From the NCBI GenBank assembly GCA_016787725.1, contig JAEUTZ010000005.1:72317-136316 (forward strand): a DNA stretch of 64,000 bases, read 5' to 3'. The notes beneath the pieces were generated by a model. The model saw only the letters and a list, made by a program, of their open reading frames with translations, searched no databases and was not told where the DNA came from. Below are positions 4,765 through 51,888 of this stretch, piece by piece. The number at the start of each line of letters is the position of its first letter. The stretch's first letter is position 1. This DNA is from Cyclobacteriaceae bacterium. GTDB taxonomy: Bacteria > Bacteroidota > Bacteroidia > Cytophagales > Cyclobacteriaceae. The position numbers and the translations under genes were made by a program.

Positions 4765-7700
4765 ATGAATAAATACGCTACCCCACTCTGTATGATGCTT
4801 ATTCTGGTAAGCATCGCCACGCTGGCTCAGGAACCTAAAAAGGAAGAAAAAGCCGACACTGTAAAAAAGGAAAAGCCGAAAAAGAAAAAGGACTTACCCC
4901 TGGAAGTAGCCAGGCGTGTGCCTATTAAAACCACCGAAGGCACGTGGATGTCGTTGGATGTTAGTCCGGATGGAAAGACCATCGCCTTCGATTTTTTGGG
5001 CGACATTTTCACCATGCCCATCACCGGAGGCAAGCCCGTCCAATTTACCAGCGGTTTGGCATTCGATTCGCACCCGAAATTCAGTCCGGATGGAAAGCGG
5101 TTATTGTTTATTTCCGATCGCAGCGGTGGTGAGAATATCTGGTGGTTTACACTGGATAAAAAAGATTCACTGCAGGTTACCAAAGGCAACACGGACCATT
5201 ATCAATCTGCCGAGTGGACCCCGGATGGAAATTACATTGTCGGATCGCGGGGTGGTCGTAACCTGAAATTATGGATGTTTCATACGGAAGGAGGCTCCGG
5301 TGCGCAGCTTATCAGCAAGCCCGATAATTTGAAAACGGTGGAGCCTGCTTTTGGTGCCGATGGCCGTTATATCTGGCATGCCCAACGCAATAATGCATGG
5401 ACTTACAACGCACAACTTCCACAATATCAACTGGCAATTTACGATCGGGAGACGGGTGAAACCGAAACCGAAACTGCCCGGTATGGTTCCGCCTTCACCC
5501 CCACCCTTTCCCCCGATGGTAAGTGGCTGGTGTACGGATCGCGATACAATGATCAAACAGGTCTTCTTCTTCGCGACCTGAAAACGGGCGATGAAAAGTG
5601 GCTCGCCTATCCCGTGCAACACGATGAGCAGGAATCCATTGCTCCGTTGGGCGTATTACCCGCCATGTCTTTTACCCCTGACAGTAAAAATGTGATCGCA
5701 TCGTATGGTGGCAAGTTTTACAGCATACCGGTTGCCGGAGGCAATGCTGTAAACATCCCTTTCGAGTTGGAGACAGAATTTCTGATGGGTGCCACGGTGG
5801 CAGATTTTAAATACCCGATCAAGGATGATAAAGATATGGTTGTCACCCAAATTCGGGATGGTGCAGTATCCCCCGATGGGAAACAACTTGCATTCACAGC
5901 CCTGAATAAGTTGTATGTGATGGACCTTCCTGCCGGAACACCCCGCAGAGTTACCACCAACACCGTAACGGAAGCCATGCCTGCCTGGAGTAACGATGGC
6001 AGCCAACTGGCCTGGGTAACCTGGGAAGGCACGGCCGGTAACATTTACAAGATGAACTTCAAAGTAAAAGGTGCCAAGCCGGTTAAACTCACAACCTCCC
6101 CTGCGTTGTATAGCGAACCCGCCTGGTCAGGCAACAAGATTGTGTTCCTGATGGGCACCGCTCACAATTATAAAGAAAGTGACGGCCCCTTTGCGTTCTC
6201 CAGCCAGGAAGATCTTGCCTGGATCAGTGGCGATGGTGGCGCAGTCAACTTCATTGCCAAATCAAGAGGAAGGGGCATGCCTCACTTCACCAAAGCGGGT
6301 GATCGAATCTATTTGTACAGCGGACAAAAGGGATTGGTGTCCATCCGGTGGGATGGAACAGACGAGAAAGCACATCTGAAAGTTACCGGCATTACTGTAT
6401 ATGGCTTCACCAACGATGAAAACCAGTGCATGTTGGTGGAAACATCGGCCGAGCCACAACGCGAACCTTCCAACGCTTCAGTCATTCTGATGGCCCCGGA
6501 AGGAGATCAGGCAGTGGCAAAAATCAACAATGATATTTATGTTGTCACGGTGCCGAAAACGGGTGGTGAAACTCCAAAAATTTCTGTGGCGGATGCCGAA
6601 AACGCCTCTTTTCCAGCCCGCAAACTCACGAAAATGGGTGGCGAATTCCCAAGCTGGAGTAGGAATGCAAAAACTGTTTACTTCTCGTTAGGCAACGCGT
6701 TTTTTACCTATACCCTTGATGAGGCGAAAGCCAACGAGGAGGCATTGAAAAAGAAAAAGGCGGAAGAAGAAAACGCAAAAGAGGATGGCACAGTAAAACA
6801 AGAAGAGAATATACCGGCAGAGAAGAAAGATGAGACCTACAAGCCCAATGAAATCCGGGTTAAGATTACCGTGCAAAAAGATATCCCCAGTGGAAAAATT
6901 CTTTTACAAAACGCCCACATCATAACGATGAAAGGGGATGAAGTTATTGAGCGGGGGGATGTCTTGATTGAAAACGCGCGTATCAAGCAAGTAGGTGCAG
7001 CCGGCACAATTTCGGTAGATGGATCGGTGCAAAAGATGGACGTAAGCGGGAAGACGATCGTTCCCGGTTTTGTTGATACTCATTCGCACATGTGGCCAGC
7101 CTGGGGCATTCATAAAAATCAGGTGTGGATGTATGCAGCCAACCTCGCATACGGGGTAACCACCACCCGCGATCCCCAGACCTCCTCTACCGATGTATTG
7201 ACGTACAGCGATATGGTTGAAACCGGTGAAATCATTGGCCCCAGAATTTATTCTACCGGACCGGGCGTTAGCTACTGGATGTACAATTTAAAAGATGCCG
7301 ATCAGGCCAAAGACATTTTGAAGCAATACTCGGAATACTACAATACCAAGACTATCAAAATGTACCTGACCGGCAACCGGCAGCACCGGCAATGGATCAT
7401 TCAGGCGGCAAAAGAACAAAACCTGATGCCAACCACCGAAGGCGGGTTGGACTTCAAACTCAACCTGACCAATTTAATTGATGGGTATCCCGGGCACGAA
7501 CACGCATTCCCGATTTATCCGCTGTACAAAGACTTTACCACTGCAGTGGCCGCTTCGGGCATGACCTATACACCTACCTTGCTGGTGGCCTATGGCGGTC
7601 CCTGGGCAGAAAACTTCTACTATGCAACGGAAAATGTCAATGGCGATCCAAAATTGAATCACTTCACTGCCAAGTCTGAGCTCGATTCAAAATCGCGAAG

Positions 7701-40338: not shown

Positions 40339-41655
40339 ATGATTTCAGACCTCTTCTTTCACTTGATATTAGCCATTCTCTTTGGCGCGGCTGTAGGCCT
40401 GGAGCGCGAAAGCAATAAACCCAACGATCCACATGTGGGTGGCATTCGTACTTTTTCACTGATCGCGCTGGCTGGGGCGCTGGCCGGCATTTTCTTTCAA
40501 CATAACTATGCATCCCTGGGGTTGGTAATTGTGATTGGATTTTTCGCACTGCTGATCGGCTACTACGTGGCTGAATCAATTCATACGCATGACTACGGCA
40601 TCACCAGCGAACTTTCGGCCATGATCACCTTTATCCTGGGCATCATGGTTATGGTAAACATTATTCCCTTGCAGATAACCGTAGCCATCTTTGTCGTAGT
40701 CATTTTTGTGCTGGCGATGAAATCGCGCACCACCAAACTAGTGGCCGGCCTGTCGCAGCAGGAGGTTCAGTCCTTCATCAGCTATGCCATCATTGCCCTG
40801 GTGGCGCTCCCGGTGTTGCCCGACTACTCGTACCGACTCAACGATATGCCAGTGCTTGCTTCTTTGTTGCAGGGCTTTGGTATTGACTTATCCAAATACG
40901 ATACGCTCGACTTAATCAATCCGCAAAAAATCTGGATGATCGTGGTGCTGATTACCGGCATTGATGTCTTTGGGTACATCCTGGGGCGCCTGGTAGGCAA
41001 GCGCAACGGATTTGCGCTTACCAGTTTCATGGCTGGTTTTGTTTCTTCCACATCGGCAACCCAGTCGCTGGCACAGCGCAGCAACCACACCAAATTTGTC
41101 AACCATCTGATAGGAGCTGCTTTGCTAGCTAATCTCGCCAGTTTTCTGCAAATCTTTCTGTTGGTGGGGCCGCTCAACATCAAGTGGCTGCTCTCCATTG
41201 CCCCGAGCATATTTATTATGGTCGCTACTGCTGGGGTAATTACGTACTTCTTCTTTAAACAGAAGGAACCCAAAGATGAAGAAGACACAGAGGCTAAAAA
41301 AGCAACCGCCATCTTTTCGCTTTTTCCGGCACTCAAGTTTGCTGCGCTGCTGATTGTGATCAAGATTGTAACTAAAATCTGCTTGATCGAATTTGGTCAA
41401 TCAGGCTTTATGATTAGTTCCGTCATCGCTTCGTTTGCCGGATTGGACGCCATCATCGTCACCTTGGCCGACATGGCCGGTACAACGCTCACATTTGAAT
41501 TTGCCTTCGTCACCTTTCTCTTGGTTAATACCACCAACCTGCTGAGCAAATCAGTTTACTCTTATCTGCAGGGCAATCGTAGTTTTGCCTGGAAATTTCT
41601 GATTTCCATTTTAATCGTAGCCGCTGCCGGTGCAAGCTGGTTGATCTTTATTTAG
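40339..41655 (+). CDS. MgtC/SapB-family membrane protein with DUF4010
   Basis: VGLERE..GGIRTFSL MgtC motif; GFVSSTSAT and SFAGLDAI DUF4010 motifs; many TMs. Confidence 0.85.
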   Translation: MISDLFFHLILAILFGAAVGLERESNKPNDPHVGGIRTFSLIALAGALAGIFFQHNYASLGLVIVIGFFALLIGYYVAESIHTHDYGITSELSAMITFILGIMVMVNIIPLQITVAIFVVVIFVLAMKSRTTKLVAGLSQQEVQSFISYAIIALVALPVLPDYSYRLNDMPVLASLLQGFGIDLSKYDTLDLINPQKIWMIVVLITGIDVFGYILGRLVGKRNGFALTSFMAGFVSSTSATQSLAQRSNHTKFVNHLIGAALLANLASFLQIFLLVGPLNIKWLLSIAPSIFIMVATAGVITYFFFKQKEPKDEEDTEAKKATAIFSLFPALKFAALLIVIKIVTKICLIEFGQSGFMISSVIASFAGLDAIIVTLADMAGTTLTFEFAFVTFLLVNTTNLLSKSVYSYLQGNRSFAWKFLISILIVAAAGASWLIFI

Positions 41656-43043: not shown

Positions 43044-43153
43044 GATGTACCCCTCTCTCCTAGCACCGTGGGAAGGAGGCTAAGGTAAGAAGCGGGGGAG
43101 GGGATCCCGCTCTCTAAAATCAATTTCCTACCTTGGCGAAACATGGTCGCCCT

Positions 43154-45637
43154 ATGAAAAAGATCTTACTCCTGCTCGTGTTGCTTCCGGCTGTAACCTA
43201 CGCGCAACATGCAGCCAAAATCAAACGCATCGATTCGGTGCTCACCTACCTGCACCAATACCATTTGTTTAATGGCACGGTGCTGATTGGCGAAAAAGGG
43301 AAAGTGTTGTATAAAAAAGCCTTTGGCATTGCCCACCCGCAAACACAGCAACCGCTTACCACGGCTTCGTCCTTTAACCTGGCATCGGTAAGCAAACAGT
43401 TTTACACCATGATGGCCATGATGCTGAAGGAACAAGGGAAACTGAACTACGATGACGTTGTGCAACAATACCTGCCTTCATTTCCGTACCACAACATCAC
43501 CATTCGCCAGCTCATGAACCAGATCTCGGGTCTGCCAGAGTACTTTGATATTGCACAAGGGGATATGAATCCACTCGACACGCTTACCAATGCCTCCATG
43601 CTGGAATTGCTCGCAACTAAAAAGCCCGCACTAGAATTTAAACCAGGCGACCGCTGGGAGTATTGCAATACCAATTACACTACGCTGGCTTCGGTGATTG
43701 AGAAGGTGTCGGGTCTCACGGCAGAACAATTTTTTGCACACCGAATCGCAACTCCGCTCAAGCTCAGTAATACGTATGTGTATCATCTCAAGATGAAATC
43801 GTACCCACCCTCGCGCGTGTTTGGATTTGACTACGATGGCCAGACCTACACACTCAACGATCTGGTGCGCTTCGATGGCATTGTGGGCGATGGCAACGTG
43901 TATTCTTCTGTTGAAGATTTATACAAGTGGGATCAGGCATTGTATACTGATAAATTGGTGAAGAAGGCCACGTTTGCCGAAGCCATCACTCCGGGTAAGT
44001 TGAACAATGGTGAAAATCCACGTTATGGTTTTGGCTGGTTTATCCGCGAGCAAGGCAAGACCGTTTCACACACCGGGGGGTGGGTGGGCTTTGGAACCGA
44101 AATAACCCGTTATCTCGACAAGAATCAAACCATCATCGTATTGGATAACTCATCTAACTTCTGGGCCCATGCTTTGGTGAAAAATATCTGGGAAGACCGT
44201 TCTGTACAATTGCCCAAAACACATTTAATCACGAACGTAAGAATCATCGATGGCACGGGTTTGCCGGCCGTTGCCGGCAGTGTGCGGGTATTGAATAACC
44301 GGATTCGTCACGTTGGGATTTTAACTCGGTTTCCGGGCGAACCTGTAACCGATGGAAGTGGAAATGTGTTAGCCCCCGGATTTATTGACAACCACAGCCA
44401 CCATGATGGGGAATTGTCACAAAACCCATCTGCAGGAGCGGTTATAAGTCAGGGCATCACTACGATTGTGGTAGGGCAGGATGGTGGATCGCAGCCAATG
44501 GATTCCCTTCAAAAAGGCATTCAAAAAAAGCCGGTCAGTGTCAACGTAGCTTCTTTTACCGGACATGCCTCCTTGCGTGAAAAGGTCATGGGTCGGGATT
44601 TATATCGCAAGGCTACCCAAACCGAAATCGACTCGATGAAAGTATTGCTCAAACGAGAGCTGGAAAGAGGTTCGCTGGGATTAAGTACCGGATTGGAATA
44701 CGAAGAAGCCTTTTACAGTTCGCGCGATGAAGTGGTGGCCCTGGCAAAAGTGGCAGCCGAAAGCAATGGTCGGTACATCAGCCACATTCGCAGTGAAGAT
44801 TTGAACCTGGAGGAAGCATTGGAGGAAATTATTCACATTGGCCGCGAAGCAAAAATCCCGGTTCAGATTACTCACATTAAAATCGCCATGCGCAGCAAGT
44901 GGGGCGATTCAGAAAAAATTCTGCGGCAATTGGAAATTGCACGGAAGCAAGGCGTTGATGTGACAGCCGATGTTTATCCATACACGATGTGGAACTCAAC
45001 TCCGCGGGTTCTCTTTCCGAAAAAGGATTTTGATAATCAAACCAGTGCTGAATTTGCTACTCGCGAGTTGTTCGATCCGGCAGCATCGGTGATGGTGCGG
45101 TACACTGCTCAACCCTCCTGGCAGGGAAAAACGGTTAGTGAAATTGCAACCCTCAATAATGAAACCCCGGCTCAGGCCTTACTGCGCATCATCCGTGAAA
45201 GTGGAGCCCCCGGACAAGGCAGTACGATCGTTGCCAAGAGTATGAGCGAAACAGACATCAGCAATTTTATAAAGTGGCCGTACACCAGCATTTGTTCCGA
45301 TGGCACCATGCATGGGCACCCACGCGGGCACGGAGCATTTACACGCGTATTGGGAAGGTATGTGCGCGAACAAAAGTTAATACCGTTGGAAACGGCTATT
45401 CAAAAGATGACCAGCCTGGCAGCTGAGAATGTAGGCATCAAAAACCGGGGTCTTATTGTACCTGGGTACTTTGCCGATCTGGTCCTGTTCAATCCAACCA
45501 CGGTGCTGGATAATGCCACCATCGAAAAGCCGACAGCCTTATCTACCGGAATAGAATCCGTTTGGGTGAATGGCAAGCTCGTATACGAAAATCAAAATGC
45601 AATTGCTAATTATCCGGGCATGGTGGTGAAAAGATAG
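43154..45637 (+). CDS. Serine hydrolase (beta-lactamase/PBP-like) fused to N-acyl-D-amino-acid deacylase-like amidohydrolase
   Basis: SVSK, YCN and HTG motifs in the N-terminal half; PGFIDNHSH, HIRSE, THIK, SDG and HPRGHGAFTRVLGRYVRE in the C-terminal half. Confidence 0.85.
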   Translation: MKKILLLLVLLPAVTYAQHAAKIKRIDSVLTYLHQYHLFNGTVLIGEKGKVLYKKAFGIAHPQTQQPLTTASSFNLASVSKQFYTMMAMMLKEQGKLNYDDVVQQYLPSFPYHNITIRQLMNQISGLPEYFDIAQGDMNPLDTLTNASMLELLATKKPALEFKPGDRWEYCNTNYTTLASVIEKVSGLTAEQFFAHRIATPLKLSNTYVYHLKMKSYPPSRVFGFDYDGQTYTLNDLVRFDGIVGDGNVYSSVEDLYKWDQALYTDKLVKKATFAEAITPGKLNNGENPRYGFGWFIREQGKTVSHTGGWVGFGTEITRYLDKNQTIIVLDNSSNFWAHALVKNIWEDRSVQLPKTHLITNVRIIDGTGLPAVAGSVRVLNNRIRHVGILTRFPGEPVTDGSGNVLAPGFIDNHSHHDGELSQNPSAGAVISQGITTIVVGQDGGSQPMDSLQKGIQKKPVSVNVASFTGHASLREKVMGRDLYRKATQTEIDSMKVLLKRELERGSLGLSTGLEYEEAFYSSRDEVVALAKVAAESNGRYISHIRSEDLNLEEALEEIIHIGREAKIPVQITHIKIAMRSKWGDSEKILRQLEIARKQGVDVTADVYPYTMWNSTPRVLFPKKDFDNQTSAEFATRELFDPAASVMVRYTAQPSWQGKTVSEIATLNNETPAQALLRIIRESGAPGQGSTIVAKSMSETDISNFIKWPYTSICSDGTMHGHPRGHGAFTRVLGRYVREQKLIPLETAIQKMTSLAAENVGIKNRGLIVPGYFADLVLFNPTTVLDNATIEKPTALSTGIESVWVNGKLVYENQNAIANYPGMVVKR

Positions 45638-46786: not shown

Positions 46787-46990
46787 CTACTTCGCTGCTA
46801 CCTGAAAGGCACGTTCATTATTCTTCTCAACCTCGCGCAGCGTGCGTAATTGCTTCATTTCTTCGAGCAAGGTTAACAACGAGGTTTCATCTGCCTTAAG
46901 GTGTGCTTTTAATTCCGATAAGGACTTGATTTCATTCGGTGCTTTGCGGAAGTCGGTGATGAAATTGAGGATATCTACTTTCTTGATCAT
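46787..46990 (-). CDS. Small hypothetical protein (67 aa), possibly winged-helix-like
   Basis: MIKKVDILNFITDFRK...; helical amphipathic pattern; fills the intergenic space. Confidence 0.6.
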   Translation of the reverse strand: MIKKVDILNFITDFRKAPNEIKSLSELKAHLKADETSLLTLLEEMKQLRTLREVEKNNERAFQVAAK

Positions 46991-47155
46991 GGCAAACACA
47001 GTTTGCAGGCGTAACGGGAAATCCCAATTTCAAGATTCAAAATTCAAAAACTAAATAGCTGGCCTCGCATTGAGTGACATGAAATATTAACTCCAATGTA
47101 CCAGCGTAGTTGTTCTCCTGGTTTCCAGGATGTACTTTATGGTTAATACGGGAAT

Positions 47156-48724
47156 CTATTTCGAGACAATATACGTTGGTGCCTTTCTGTGTTTCGTTGC
47201 CTGCTCATATCCATAAGCAATTTCAATCAAGGTCGGCTCCTGCCAGGCCGTGCTGAAGAAGGAAACCCCAACCGGCAGCACATCGACAAAGCCCATAGGC
47301 ACGGTAATGGAAGGATAGCCCGAAATCGCAGCCAGCGATGAACTGCCGCCCAGAAAATGATCGCCATTGATTAGGTCCGTTTTCCAGGCAGGCGCCCCGG
47401 TAGGCGCCATCAGTGCATCGAGTTTATTTTCCAGCAGTAATTTATCGATGCCGTTCTCGCGAGTAGCCTTGTGCATCGTGGCTAAAGCGTCAAGGTATTC
47501 TTTGTCCTGCAAGGTTCCCTTTTCGTGCGCCAGCTTCAGCAACTGCTGATCGAAGTACTTCAACTCAACCGAATCCTGTCTATTAAACTCCATCAACCCG
47601 GCAAGATCTTGTACCCGGGCTTTATCGCCCAGGCTGGAAAAGTATTTCGTCAGGCCATCCTTAAACTCATACAACAGCACCGTAAATGATGATCCGCCCG
47701 CACTGCGATCCATGCTAAAGTCGATTTCCACTACTTCGGCACCTTGTGCCCGTAAATCAACAATGGCTTTCTTGATTAACGTATCGACACCCGCATGATA
47801 GCCACCGATGTTCTTTAACCAGCCAATGCGCTTGCCCTTCAACCCATCGGCTTTCAAATAAGCTGTATAGTCGGTAAAGGATTTACCGGCCGAAGCCAGG
47901 GTTTTCTCATCGGTTGAGTCAACTCCGGCCAATACCCCCAGGGCAATAGCCACATCGGTTACTGTTCTGCCCATAGGGCCTGCAGTATCCTGTGTAAATG
48001 AAATCGGAATAATACCACTGCGGCTTAACAAGCCAACGGTGGGTTTTAATCCAACCAATCCATTGGCGTTGGACGGACACACAATGGAACCATTCGTTTC
48101 GGTACCAATCGCAAGGGCACATAGGTTAGCCGAAGCGGCTACTCCTGAACCCGAACTGGAACCACAGGGATTGCGATCCAATACATAAGGATTCTTGGTT
48201 TGGCCCAACATCCCGCTCCACCCACTACTACTCATATCCGCCCGGAAGTTGGCCCACTCGCTTAGATTTGCCTTCGCGATGATAACTGCACCTGCATCGC
48301 GTAACTTCTTAACCAGGTAGCTGTCATGAGGCGGGTAGGAATCGCGCAGAACCGTTGCTCCGGCTGTGGTAGGCATATCGGTAGTATTAAGATTGTCCTT
48401 TACGATTACCGGAATACCATGTAAAGGACCCCGGCTGTTACCTGCCTTTAGTTCAGCATCCAATGCTTTTGCGGTTTCAATAGCCTGTGGGTTGATGCAG
48501 ATAATCGAGTTAAGGGCGGGCCCGTCCTTATCGAGATCTTCAATGCGTTGCAGGTAGTCTTTCACAACCTGCTCGATTGAATAGGTCCCCTCAGCATAGC
48601 CCGTTTGCAGTTGCGAAAGGGTTATTTCCTCGAGGTATTGATGAGTTGATGTCTTCTTTTCTGTGGTTGGTGAGCAGGAAATAACCATAACCAACGGCAG
48701 TATTAGCTTCAGAATGCGGAGCAT
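47156..48724 (-). CDS. Amidase-signature family enzyme, lipoprotein
   Basis: Lipobox VISC; LHGIPVIVKD; GKANL-type motif (AKANLSEWAN); CGSSSGSG; GTETNGSIVCPS; start moved to ATG 48724. Confidence 0.9.
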   Translation of the reverse strand: MLRILKLILPLVMVISCSPTTEKKTSTHQYLEEITLSQLQTGYAEGTYSIEQVVKDYLQRIEDLDKDGPALNSIICINPQAIETAKALDAELKAGNSRGPLHGIPVIVKDNLNTTDMPTTAGATVLRDSYPPHDSYLVKKLRDAGAVIIAKANLSEWANFRADMSSSGWSGMLGQTKNPYVLDRNPCGSSSGSGVAASANLCALAIGTETNGSIVCPSNANGLVGLKPTVGLLSRSGIIPISFTQDTAGPMGRTVTDVAIALGVLAGVDSTDEKTLASAGKSFTDYTAYLKADGLKGKRIGWLKNIGGYHAGVDTLIKKAIVDLRAQGAEVVEIDFSMDRSAGGSSFTVLLYEFKDGLTKYFSSLGDKARVQDLAGLMEFNRQDSVELKYFDQQLLKLAHEKGTLQDKEYLDALATMHKATRENGIDKLLLENKLDALMAPTGAPAWKTDLINGDHFLGGSSSLAAISGYPSITVPMGFVDVLPVGVSFFSTAWQEPTLIEIAYGYEQATKHRKAPTYIVSK

Positions 48725-48946
48725 ATGCGTGTATTTAATAAGCGAATATAACCCCGGCCTCATTCTTCAAAAATCAATAAAGCGATAAAGGGTTTAACTG
48801 AACGATTGGTGGTTGTATCGGGTACCCCTGCACATTCACTGCATAGAAATCTTCATGAATACTTTACTTTAATAAAAATATTTATTCAAATTTGTATAAC
48901 TCTATGGCAAATAGAATTTATTGGACCACAACCGTGGCTGTGCGAA

Positions 48947-50041
48947 ATGGCATTTCTTAATCGCCCGGCTGCGTATAAAGTCTGGATCTTCGCGCCCTAC
49001 CTCGACACGGATGATCCCACTTTAAAATATTATTACGACTATACTCAAAGCATAGCCGAATACAGTAAGGTATTCTCTGAACTGGACTGTGAATGGGAGT
49101 GGGTTAATGTTACCGTCAACAATATCCAGGCGTCTATTGAAAAGGTGAAGAAACACAGACGCAAAAAAAACATCGTGCTGAACCTTTGCGATGGTGATGA
49201 AATCAATGAAGTACCCGGCATTTCGGTTATTCATGCACTGGATGCAAGTAACCTGACCTATACCGGGTCTGATTCTCACTTCTATCACGTCACCACCTCC
49301 AAGATCACCATGAAAGAAGCCTTTCATGAACATGGTGTTGCTATGCCCAGTTGGGCAAAGTTAAATGGGCATATCGATCCGGATCTTTTCAAGAAGGTAG
49401 GCAAACCCCTTATCGTAAAACCTGCCGTATCAGCCGGCAGCATGGGTATTAGCATTAAAAACGTAGTATCGGGCAAACGGCAACTGAAGAGCGTGTTGGA
49501 TACTATGCATACCGGATTTAAAGGTTGGAAGCTGGATGGAGCCGGGTTGTTGGCCGAACAGTTCATCATTGGCCGCGAATTCACCACACTGCTGGTCGGG
49601 TCTTACGAAAGCCCAGAAAAGATCCAGTTTTACAGGCCCATTGAACGGGTATTCCATCAATCCCTTCCCGAAAAGGAACAGTTTCTGTCCTTTGAACGCC
49701 TTTGGGAAACGTATGAAGAGGAGAAACCCTTGCCGGACAACGAATTTCTTTATGCCTACCAACCAGTGACCTGTCCGGAGCTTGCTGCCAGGTTGAAAGA
49801 GTTAAGTCTTGATGCCTTTAAAGCGGTAAAGGGACGGGGGTATGCCCGGCTCGATTTCCGGTTGGACAAGAAGACGCAACAACTCTTTGTTTTGGAGATA
49901 AACGCTCAATGTGGCCTGAGTGAGGATGAGAATTATACCTCGATCGGGGCCATCTTGCGGGTAAGCAATAAAACCTTTACTGATCTGATTGTAGAAGTAT
50001 TGGATGATGCTTTACTTCGCAAGTCCAAAGCCCTTCCATGA
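48947..50041 (+). CDS. D-Ala-D-Ala-ligase-like ATP-grasp enzyme (non-canonical)
   Basis: YTGS, KPAVSAGSMG, EQFIIGREFT, YARLDFR and LEINAQCG motifs; lacks GGxSxE and LHG; start moved to ATG 48947. Confidence 0.85.
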   Translation: MAFLNRPAAYKVWIFAPYLDTDDPTLKYYYDYTQSIAEYSKVFSELDCEWEWVNVTVNNIQASIEKVKKHRRKKNIVLNLCDGDEINEVPGISVIHALDASNLTYTGSDSHFYHVTTSKITMKEAFHEHGVAMPSWAKLNGHIDPDLFKKVGKPLIVKPAVSAGSMGISIKNVVSGKRQLKSVLDTMHTGFKGWKLDGAGLLAEQFIIGREFTTLLVGSYESPEKIQFYRPIERVFHQSLPEKEQFLSFERLWETYEEEKPLPDNEFLYAYQPVTCPELAARLKELSLDAFKAVKGRGYARLDFRLDKKTQQLFVLEINAQCGLSEDENYTSIGAILRVSNKTFTDLIVEVLDDALLRKSKALP

Positions 50042-51489
50042 AAGTATGCGTTCTGCAACCTGACTATAGTACTACCGATGTAGACTATAAGCAGTACGAC
50101 CCTCCCCGCAACATTGCCCCCTTGTTGCCAAACGATCAGGTAGACCATGTGTTTCTGAACAAGCTTACTACCTATAAGCAACTGCTGGATTTGCGCAAAT
50201 CAAAGTACGACATCTTTGTTAACCTGTGCGAAGGGTATCTGGATTGGTCGGTTCCCTCCATTGATGTTATCCATTCGTTGGAAACATTGAACCTTCCCTT
50301 TACCGGTCCCAATGCGGTCTTGTACGATCCCCCAAAGCCGCTGATGAAATATGTGGCTTTCTGTGCCGGAGTAAAGACACCCAACTTTGTGGAAGTAACG
50401 AGTACCGTTGACCTGTTCAAAAAAATAAGTCACTTAACATTTCCCCTGTTCGTAAAACCTGCGAAGGCGGGGGATAGCCTGGGGGTGGATGAGGAGTCTC
50501 TGGCGAAAGACCTACCGCACTTACAACACAAAGTGGCGGCCCTGATTGCCGAAGGATACGAAGACGTACTGATTGAAGAATACATTGCCGGGCAAGAGTT
50601 TACGGTGTTGGTGGCTGCCAACATTGCACCACAGCGAGGATGTCTCGTGTTTAAGCCTGTGGAATACCAATTCCCGAACGGGTATGCCTTCAAGACGTAT
50701 GCCTTGAAAACCTCCGAGTTGCATACCGATGTAAACAAACCTTGTCAGGATGCGACCCTGGAAACCAAACTGAAATCGGCTGCTGAAAAAATCTTCTCGG
50801 GGTTTTATGGAGTAGGGTATGCCCGGCTCGATTTTCGGGTGAACAGTCAGCAGGAAATTTATTTTTTAGAAATCAATTTTACCTGTTCGGTTTTTTATGA
50901 AGATGGGTACGAAGGCTCAGCCGATTACATCCTGAAATATGATCCCATTGGTAAAGCCGGATTTCTGAAGCACATCATTGCCGAAGGGATTGCCCGGCAC
51001 GCAGCAAAACAAAAAAAATACCGCGTCAATGGTACCGCTATTAACGGCTATGGGATCGTTGCCCAGCGCTCATTAAAGAAAGGCGAAGTTATTTTTATGC
51101 TGGAAGAACTCGCCCAGCGCATTGTAACCAAGCGTCACGTTGAAACCCATTGGACCCCGGAACAACGGGAAGAATTCCGTCACTACGCTTATCCTATTTC
51201 GGAGGAAGTGTACATTCTATGGGATAACAAGCCACAGAACTGGGCCCCTCAAAACCACAGTTGCAATCCCAACACAACCTACAATGGCCTTAACCTGGTT
51301 GCCCTGCGGGATATTGCCCCTGAAGAAGAACTCACCCTCGATTATTCGGAGCTTCTGAATGAAACCATGCAGTCCTTCGTGTGCACCTGTGGCGCCCCAA
51401 ATTGCAGAAAGGTGATCTCCGGAAATCCCGGCAACTCCATCACACAACGGGAGAAATTTTCCCTGATGACCCCGAAAATCAAAGAGTAA
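50038..51489 (+). CDS. Ddl-like ATP-grasp enzyme fused to SET/post-SET methyltransferase domain
   Basis: KPAKAGDSLG, EEYIAGQEFT, YARLDFR, LEINFTC; then GYGIVA, NHSCNPN, ELTLDY and CTCGAPNC. Confidence 0.88.
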   Translation: MKVCVLQPDYSTTDVDYKQYDPPRNIAPLLPNDQVDHVFLNKLTTYKQLLDLRKSKYDIFVNLCEGYLDWSVPSIDVIHSLETLNLPFTGPNAVLYDPPKPLMKYVAFCAGVKTPNFVEVTSTVDLFKKISHLTFPLFVKPAKAGDSLGVDEESLAKDLPHLQHKVAALIAEGYEDVLIEEYIAGQEFTVLVAANIAPQRGCLVFKPVEYQFPNGYAFKTYALKTSELHTDVNKPCQDATLETKLKSAAEKIFSGFYGVGYARLDFRVNSQQEIYFLEINFTCSVFYEDGYEGSADYILKYDPIGKAGFLKHIIAEGIARHAAKQKKYRVNGTAINGYGIVAQRSLKKGEVIFMLEELAQRIVTKRHVETHWTPEQREEFRHYAYPISEEVYILWDNKPQNWAPQNHSCNPNTTYNGLNLVALRDIAPEEELTLDYSELLNETMQSFVCTCGAPNCRKVISGNPGNSITQREKFSLMTPKIKE

Positions 51490-51549: not shown

Positions 51550-51888
51550 ATGAGATACTGCCTTGGCTTTCTACTTGTATTCGGATTACTACCCCACCTC
51601 CGGGGTCAATCGTATGTCCCATTAAAAAGCGAAACCCGGATGATTCATCCGAAAGCAACTCTAAAAACATATGCCTTTTCATTAAGCGATGTATCCCTGC
51701 TGTCCGGACCCTTTCAAAATGCCTTGCAACGGGATGTGGCGTATATACTTCAATTGGATCCAGACCGTTTCCTTGGTCATTACCTATCCGCTTGTGCCAT
51801 GGATGATGCTGCTACTGGCGATCAACGCTTTAAAGAAAAGTGGTGCGAGGGGAATCGGAAAATGATTCACCGCAAAGGTGTACGGTAA
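51550..51888 (+). pseudogene. Internally deleted, truncated GH127/GH146 (DUF1680) glycoside hydrolase
   Basis: Signal peptide + LSDVSLLSGPFQNA..YILQLDPDRF joined directly to LGHYLSACAM..ATGD; stops at 112 aa. Confidence 0.7.

Follow-up and report, generated by a model that had tools for sequence, protein, structure and literature searches.

Several tiny, self-contained gene cassettes are known in which an ATP-grasp ligase joins common amino acids and the product is then decorated, sometimes with a transporter encoded alongside. In the Ngg system, for example, a GNAT enzyme and an ATP-grasp ligase give rise to N-acetylglutaminylglutamine amide. Carnosine synthase, also an ATP-grasp enzyme, acts with carnosine N-methyltransferase to give anserine (PMC3660329), and the ash/tgi cassettes, which consist of a sulfoxide synthase, an ATP-grasp ligase and a transporter, direct the formation of thiohistidine dipeptides (PMC13674229). 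None of these systems contains a SET methyltransferase. SET domains have almost always been treated as protein-lysine methyltransferases, and the first solved case of a SET enzyme working on a free amino acid is BurB (methionine S-methyltransferase, MSMT), a minimal bacterial protein of 172 aa that belongs to the dimethylsulfoniopropionate (DMSP) methylation pathway (PDB 9l4t/9l4v; PMC12542666). The only described protein we found that joins a SET-like domain to an ATP-grasp domain is the eukaryotic TTLL12, whose ligase part is tubulin-tyrosine-ligase (TTL)-like and whose SET-like domain reportedly lacks catalytic activity (PMC3520985). In this study we analysed a pair of open reading frames, ORF1 and ORF2, in a 64,000-nucleotide stretch of DNA from a Cyclobacteriaceae bacterium (assembly GCA_016787725.1, contig JAEUTZ010000005.1, positions 72,317 to 136,316), hereafter called the window. 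The pair shares the logic of the Ngg, carnosine and ash/tgi cassettes but has no sequence relationship to them, since their ligases belong to other ATP-grasp subfamilies (RimK-like or CARNS1), and it differs from TTLL12 in its opposite domain order, its Ddl-type rather than TTL-type ligase and its bacterial origin. The locus is one member of a recurrent family in which an ATP-grasp amino-acid ligase pathway is combined with SET methyltransferases. We consider it somewhat probable that ORF1 and ORF2 supply the ligases at the core of a conserved cassette built from two ATP-grasp and two SET modules, and that this cassette is a cytoplasmic pathway to a methylated di- or tripeptide-like metabolite.

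ORF1 (48947-50041, plus strand) encodes a Ddl-fold ATP-grasp ligase of 364 aa (ligase 1) that has no methyltransferase domain, while ORF2 (50038-51489, plus strand) encodes a protein of 483 aa in which a second ATP-grasp ligase (ligase 2) is fused to a SET domain. The two genes share an ATGA start/stop overlap (50038..50041, plus strand), read directly from the sequence and indicative of translational coupling. Ligase 2, as delimited by Pfam PF07478 and the AlphaFold2 model, occupies residues 1-~321 of ORF2 (50038..51000, plus strand) with a long linker helix (residues 305-324) at its end. It is followed by the SET domain (residues ~327-460; 51016..51417, plus strand), as placed by Pfam PF00856 and motif conservation, and by a C-terminal tail beginning GNSITQREK (51418..51489, plus strand), which is partly conserved and modelled with low confidence at its extreme end. 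ORF1 starts at the ATG at 48947 and not at the TTG further upstream (48806), as shown by some 75 homologues that begin with an equivalent M-x-F-L-x-x-x-A-Y-K-V-W-I-F-A-P sequence. Relative to the closest relative (L009), the ratio of nonsynonymous to synonymous substitution rates (dN/dS) is 0.066 for ORF1 and 0.048 for ORF2, so that both genes are kept by purifying selection.

The Pfam model Dala_Dala_lig_C (PF07478) matches both proteins, ORF1 with an E-value of 3.5e-13 and ORF2 with 5.7e-18 over residues 128-280. Both contain the full set of ATP-grasp motifs, with VKPAVSAGSMG and EQFIIGREFT in ORF1, VKPAKAGDSLG and EEYIAGQEFT in ORF2, and YARLDFR and LEIN in both. At 29% identity to each other, the two proteins are paralogues as judged by their sequences. 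To compare their active sites with that of D-alanine-D-alanine ligase (Ddl), 34 ORF1-type and 35 ORF2-type sequences were mapped onto what we take to be the reference sequence of Escherichia coli DdlB, the numbering of which reproduced all published landmark residues; this alignment can be trusted in the core but is weak at the omega loop and in the S281 region. The DdlB residues that handle ATP, magnesium and the acyl-phosphate (K97, K144, E180, E187, R255, D257, E270 and N272) show no or almost no variation in either family. Their equivalents are K119, K158, E204, E211, R301, D303, E317 and N319 in ORF1, invariant in all 34 homologues, and K100, K140, E180, E187, R263, D265, E278 and N280 in ORF2, invariant or nearly so in the 35 sequences.

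The substrate sites look quite different. In Ddl, the GGxSxE and LHG motifs form the first D-Ala site. Neither protein has a GGxSxE motif, and the place of LHG is taken by NLCDG in ORF1 and NLCEG in ORF2, with NLC(D/E)G invariant in both families. The D-Ala-site residues E15, H63, Y216, S281 and L282 of DdlB are replaced in both families, and K215 is replaced in ORF1 only. In regions where the alignment is of low identity, K215-Y216 corresponds to L252-W253 in ORF1 and K224-T225 in ORF2, and S281/L282 corresponds to T331/S332 in ORF1 and E292/S294 in ORF2. The invariant E292 of ORF2, aligned to S281, might point to a positively charged nucleophile, for instance a diamino acid or a polyamine, on an alignment too weak to rely on. 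ORF1 also has a large insertion in its omega-loop region. The AlphaFold2 model of ORF2 is a compact two-domain structure with a mean predicted local distance difference test (pLDDT) score of 93.3 and a predicted template-modelling (pTM) score of 0.89. When it was searched with Foldseek against the PDB, the top 50 matches were all Ddl or VanA structures, with TM-scores (TMt) of 0.56-0.79 (most 0.67-0.79) and 16-22% identity. Natural fusions of ORF1 and ORF2 exist, and the model of one of them (P0088) likewise matches Ddl/VanA with TMt up to 0.83; it also matches carbamoyl-phosphate synthetase, trivially, since two ATP-grasp domains occur there as well. In the P0088 model the ATP-grasp halves fold well and the SET part is poor (pLDDT 40-60; pTM 0.52). 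The pair shares with DdlB, DdlA and VanA (PF01820 plus PF07478) the three-domain ATP-grasp fold (TMt 0.67-0.83) and the ATP/Mg2+ and acyl-phosphate residues, but is only 17-23% identical to them, carries replaced D-Ala1/D-Ala2 residues, and consists of two paralogues that are always paired and coupled to SET domains. From sequence and model, both proteins appear to be active Ddl-fold amide ligases for substrates other than D-Ala. Because their catalytic residues are identical to those of Ddl, amide ligation through an acyl-phosphate is to be expected; with the D-Ala-binding residues replaced, other substrates than D-Ala are likewise to be expected.

The scores against curated families agree with a role outside the cell wall. 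The NCBIfam Ddl and Van models give about 20-80 bits for both ORFs, far under their cut-offs of 243-775; for the two Ddl models, TIGR01205 and NF002378, ORF1 reaches 72-81 bits and ORF2 72-75 bits, below the thresholds of 243-246. The canonical ddl of the same genome lies on contig C4, where its score of 334 bits exceeds the cut-off (245.65) and it shows GGRSVEHGVS, LHG, GSSVG, K-Y and EINT motifs. Since this gene sits elsewhere in the genome, the pair is not the cell-wall enzyme and not a housekeeping copy of it. A preliminary description of this DNA, made from the letters alone, had already inferred as much; it had also reported the two genes with their ATGA overlap, the intact ATP-grasp motifs of both, the absence of GGxSxE together with an altered LHG, and a SET domain with all its hallmarks, and our results agree with it on each of these points. 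The same genome contains five more weak Ddl-like ATP-grasp paralogues (C27:597584, C4:14440, C5:114727, C24:293162 and C18:217037), which score 27-55 bits against TIGR01205.

The SET domain of ORF2 is complete. Pfam PF00856 matches residues 337-436 with an E-value of 1.5e-12 and 48.3 bits, well above the gathering cut-off of 22.4. The GYG motif (337-339), the invariant E356, NHSCNPN (406-412), ELTLDY (431-436) and the post-SET cysteines C449-x-C451-x4-C456 (CTCGAPNC) are all present, and these motifs are conserved across 61 and 16 homologues. A second, stand-alone SET gene accompanies the pair in many genomes, as described below, and both SET modules find their closest PDB sequence match in BurB (9l4t). 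BurB and the cassette SET domains share the layout of HSCxPN, xDY/FFY and CxCGxxxC with identical spacing. When family profiles are compared with the PDB, the stand-alone SET is clearly closest in sequence to BurB, with an E-value of 1.9e-16, whereas the best-matching histone methyltransferase reaches 1.9e-8. The profile of the fused SET gives 2.6e-13 for BurB, over the C-terminal 59 positions only, and 1.7e-12 for KMT2A over the whole domain (KMT2A and KMT2D both at about 1e-12). The fused SET therefore resembles BurB in its C-terminal part only, and aligns along its whole length with MLL/KMT2-type enzymes, whose GxG, NHSCxPN, ELxxDY and post-SET zinc-cluster cysteines it keeps. Unlike those enzymes, however, it has no pre-SET/AWS or reader domains, is joined to a small-molecule-type ligase, and occurs in histone-free bacteria.

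The pair belongs to a larger conserved unit. From one genome per species, 202 stretches with an ORF2 relative were collected, and 80 loci were retained. Wherever upstream DNA is available (77 of 80 loci), the gene immediately before the ORF2-type gene is of ORF1 type. A stand-alone SET gene of about 165 aa directly precedes ORF1 in 35 of the 80 loci, and a gene with the ABC_membrane_3 domain (PF13748) follows ORF2 in 15 of them and makes up 15 of the 49 downstream genes. Cultured bacteria with a full cassette of three or four genes include Chryseolinea sp. T2 (L071) and Sediminibacterium soli (P0148). Among the 80 loci there are no further recurrent neighbours beyond those shared by close relatives, and no conserved target-protein or precursor-peptide candidate was found near the related loci. 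The gene fusions found in nature are consistent with this arrangement. ORF1 and ORF2 are fused into single proteins of 831-844 aa in five 90%-identity clusters, SET and ORF1 are fused in two proteins of 530 aa (P0448 and P0450), and grasp-SET-SET and grasp-SET-grasp fusions also exist. Because such fusions link all four modules, the functional unit is best described as a stand-alone SET (SET-A) with ligase 1, together with ligase 2 joined to the fused SET (SET-B), of which the window encodes ligase 1 and ligase 2-SET-B. The profile searches and the neighbourhood survey that the preliminary description had suggested thus recover the expected domains, a conserved pair and a separate canonical ddl. 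Its proposal of a two-ligase assembly holds as far as the single unit is concerned, given the strict adjacency and the five fusion clusters, whereas the heterodimer of ORF1 and ORF2 that it considered is plausible.

A third component, missed by the preliminary description, is not linked to the pair in this genome. The window belongs to a clade of Ohtaekwangia and "Cyclobacteriaceae" metagenome-assembled genomes, including the 99% identical L009, in which neither the stand-alone SET nor ABC_membrane_3 is found at the locus. A stand-alone SET orthologue is nevertheless found in 23 of 25 carriers of the pair and in none of nine related genomes without it. Within the window clade, the gene is unlinked yet present in 13 of 14 genomes, at a distance of about 2.7 Mb on one complete chromosome. 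In the window genome it lies on contig C22 at about 41099-41584 (L093 8100-8585) and is 71% identical to the operon-encoded copies. We conclude that the BurB-like stand-alone SET belongs to the system. On C22 its flanking genes encode an EamA/DMT transporter on one side and a tetratricopeptide-repeat (TPR) protein on the other, with glycosidase and Nudix genes also nearby, and these neighbours are not conserved in relatives. The EamA/DMT transporter was considered as a linked exporter and set aside, as 12 relatives do not share its position beside the SET gene. The genome has two more stand-alone SET genes (C24:352403 and C18:63955), neither of them an orthologue of the cassette SET.

The family reaches well beyond this clade. 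In a distant clade of the same phylum, with 2.5-Mb genomes and only 38% identity to ORF2, the gene order is SET, grasp-SET, a full ATP-binding cassette (ABC) exporter and a SET fragment, adjoining Mg-chelatase genes, the latter suggesting that these are probably green sulfur bacteria. No ORF1-type gene was found anywhere in the distant-clade genomes searched. Metagenomic members at still greater distance have grasp-SET as a solo gene in unrelated surroundings. The grasp-SET fusion is therefore the core of the family, and ORF1 an addition of the Cytophagia/Chitinophagia lineage. The cassette occurs in 14 of 301 genomes of the phylum and in none of eight other genomes of the window's own family, so it is an accessory trait, probably spread by horizontal transfer. 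A PF13748 gene was found in 3 of 35 genomes tested and in none of 14 controls, and in all three it lies beside the cassette. At an E-value of 1e-3 the family includes more than 3,500 proteins in 90% clusters, with 215 representatives at 50% identity and E<=1e-30. The third, shorter SET-like ORF that follows the ABC exporter in the distant clade (L106 [G174:C11] 5812-6174, minus strand; G038:C65:1548-1862) has an in-frame stop within the match in two genomes and is possibly a decaying duplicate. A giant predicted protein of 6220 aa (P0354), which is of low complexity and eukaryote-like, carries a C-terminal grasp-SET module at residues 5642-6121 with 30% identity, and implies that the family extends to some eukaryotes or their gene models. 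It had been considered as a possible fusion to a nonribosomal peptide synthetase (NRPS) or polyketide synthase, which its low-complexity, eukaryote-like character does not bear out.

In the pathway that we favour, each ligase would bind ATP and Mg2+, phosphorylate the carboxylate of its substrate to an acyl-phosphate, and couple an amine to form an amide bond, so that the two ligases would yield either a tripeptide-like product or two different dipeptides. The building blocks would be common amino-acid-type precursors of the cytoplasm. Each SET domain, the fused one and likewise the stand-alone one on C22, would move one or more methyl groups from S-adenosylmethionine to a nitrogen or sulfur atom of a building block, an intermediate or the ligated product. 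The intermediate may be passed between ligase and methylase sites, as suggested by the compact and confident ORF2 model and by the recurrence of fusions, and the product is probably exported in other lineages by the cassette-linked ABC-type proteins. Several lines of evidence lean towards a small molecule. To our knowledge, the characterised enzymes of the Ddl/VanA fold branch all join small molecules, and do so in a closed pocket. In addition, no conserved target gene or precursor peptide lies nearby, the only recurrent accessory genes are of transport type, the accessory distribution is patchy, the partner SET is BurB-like, and the occurrence of solo grasp-SET genes in distant lineages suggests that the substrates are ubiquitous metabolites. 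We give about even chances to the more specific proposal that the cassette makes a so far undescribed class of methylated di- or tripeptide-like metabolite, with the methylation taking N-methyl, quaternary-ammonium or sulfonium form.

Several observations weigh against the favoured pathway. The evidence points to no particular substrate, and the mapping near the second substrate site is drawn from a low-identity alignment. The fused SET, which is the one that the window encodes, retains all the hallmarks of protein-lysine methyltransferases and, as far as its sequence tells, is about equally near MLL-type enzymes and BurB and would be assigned to neither side. The BurB precedent is methionine S-methylation toward DMSP, in which BurB stands alone with aminotransferase, decarboxylase and dehydrogenase partners; no such partners and no BurI/BurD/BurE-like genes are found among the neighbours of the pair or of the C22 SET. 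Finally, the window genome has no linked exporter and no PF13748 gene.

To the main rival reading we assign a smaller though appreciable chance, perhaps one in four. The ATP-grasp enzymes might add amino acids to a protein carboxylate in the manner of RimK or tubulin-tyrosine ligase, with the SET domains methylating lysines of the same target. The complete fused SET, with its GYG, NHSCxPN, ELTxDY and post-SET CxCx4C motifs and its whole-domain match to KMT2A/KMT2D, would fit such a protein- or peptide-modifying system, and TTLL12 also joins SET-like and TTL-like ATP-grasp domains (PMC3520985). Source databases name the family "protein-lysine N-methyltransferase", though this name is derived from the domain alone. 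The ligases, however, argue otherwise. Both have the Ddl fold and are not of the RimK, TTL or LysX type, with Ddl and VanA filling the top 50 structural matches. Nor was a conserved neighbouring target gene found, the BurB-like partner SET and the association of the cassette with exporter-type proteins also count against this reading, and the patchy accessory spread speaks against a housekeeping target.

It is rather unlikely that only one of the two ligases is catalytic, with ORF1 having a structural or regulatory role within a Ddl-like dimer and a single amide bond being made. Ddl enzymes are dimers, ORF1 has L252 at the position of K215 and a large omega-loop insertion, and the distant clade manages without any ORF1-type gene, all of which would be compatible with this idea. 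On the other hand, the ATP-binding, Mg-binding and acyl-phosphate residues of ORF1 are all invariant in its 34 homologues, its low dN/dS indicates constraint, and the SET+ORF1 fusions show that ORF1 has a dedicated SET partner of its own. Very improbable is a role as alternative cell-wall precursor ligases of Ddl/Van type that supply peptidoglycan with D-Ala-D-X and to which the SET domain is incidental, because the top sequence and structure matches to Ddl/VanA and the source label VanC of one database member stand against about 75 bits where all Ddl/Van models require 243-775, replaced equivalents of E15, H63, Y216, S281 and L282, a canonical ddl in the genome, no vanH/vanX-type or mur genes among the neighbours, and a strict coupling to SET domains that such a role leaves unexplained. 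An anti-phage defence role was also considered, and PADLOC gave no match.

The cytoplasmic pathway to a methylated peptide-like metabolite, if true, would make grasp-SET the first amide ligase physically coupled to a small-molecule-methylating SET domain. SET chemistry would then reach beyond BurB, and soil and freshwater Bacteroidota would have a new way of making modified peptides that needs neither ribosome nor NRPS. More generally, a Ddl-type ligase welded to a SET domain, together with a BurB-like second SET, in such a large family suggests that small-molecule SET chemistry is much commoner than thought, and the family points to a metabolite that is made by many environmental Bacteroidota. 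If the protein-modifying alternative were true instead, the cassette would represent a bacterial parallel to the ligase-plus-methylase protein codes of eukaryotes. There is also a practical consequence for annotation, as the labels "D-alanine-D-alanine ligase", "VanC" and "protein-lysine N-methyltransferase" are all probably wrong for these genes. Full-text literature on ATP-grasp plus SET and on SET plus D-Ala-D-Ala ligase, the 2009 amidoligase survey not being covered, contained no description of this architecture. The preliminary description had known of no characterised pathway with this architecture, and our literature searches likewise returned no biochemical study; its suggestion of a novel system stands in this respect, although the architecture is not a one-off and recurs in thousands of proteins.

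The neighbours of the pair in the window genome are an amidase gene and sugar-metabolism genes. The stretch between the divergent amidase gene and ORF1 (48764..48946, plus strand) presumably holds the promoter and leader of the two-gene operon; a scan of it for sigma-70-type promoters, which does not cover the promoters of Bacteroidota, gave no match. The amidase gene (47156-48763, minus strand) encodes an enzyme of 535 aa that has an amidase signature and a lipoprotein-type signal (...LVMVISC). It was considered as a partner of the pair and rejected as probably unrelated, since it adjoins the pair in 17 close relatives only, for which synteny by descent is the simplest explanation. A small ORF at 46787-46999 was likewise rejected as a precursor peptide, being present in five loci only and not adjacent to the pair. 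Downstream of ORF2, what is left of a GH127 (beta-L-arabinofuranosidase-like) gene is a decayed N-terminal piece, an ORF of 112 aa (51550-51888, plus strand). In relatives (L015) an intact version of 805 aa comes after the ligase pair, and the remnant shares 45% identity with its residues 18-145, has a 29-aa internal gap, and then stops; in the 99% identical relative L009, the gap between ORF2 and the next gene is about 245 bp shorter. Further upstream, at 43133-45637 (plus strand), the window encodes a secreted protein of 834 aa that joins a serine beta-lactamase-family domain (residues 40-341) to a D-aminoacylase-like Amidohydro_3 domain, which is an unusual two-hydrolase architecture.

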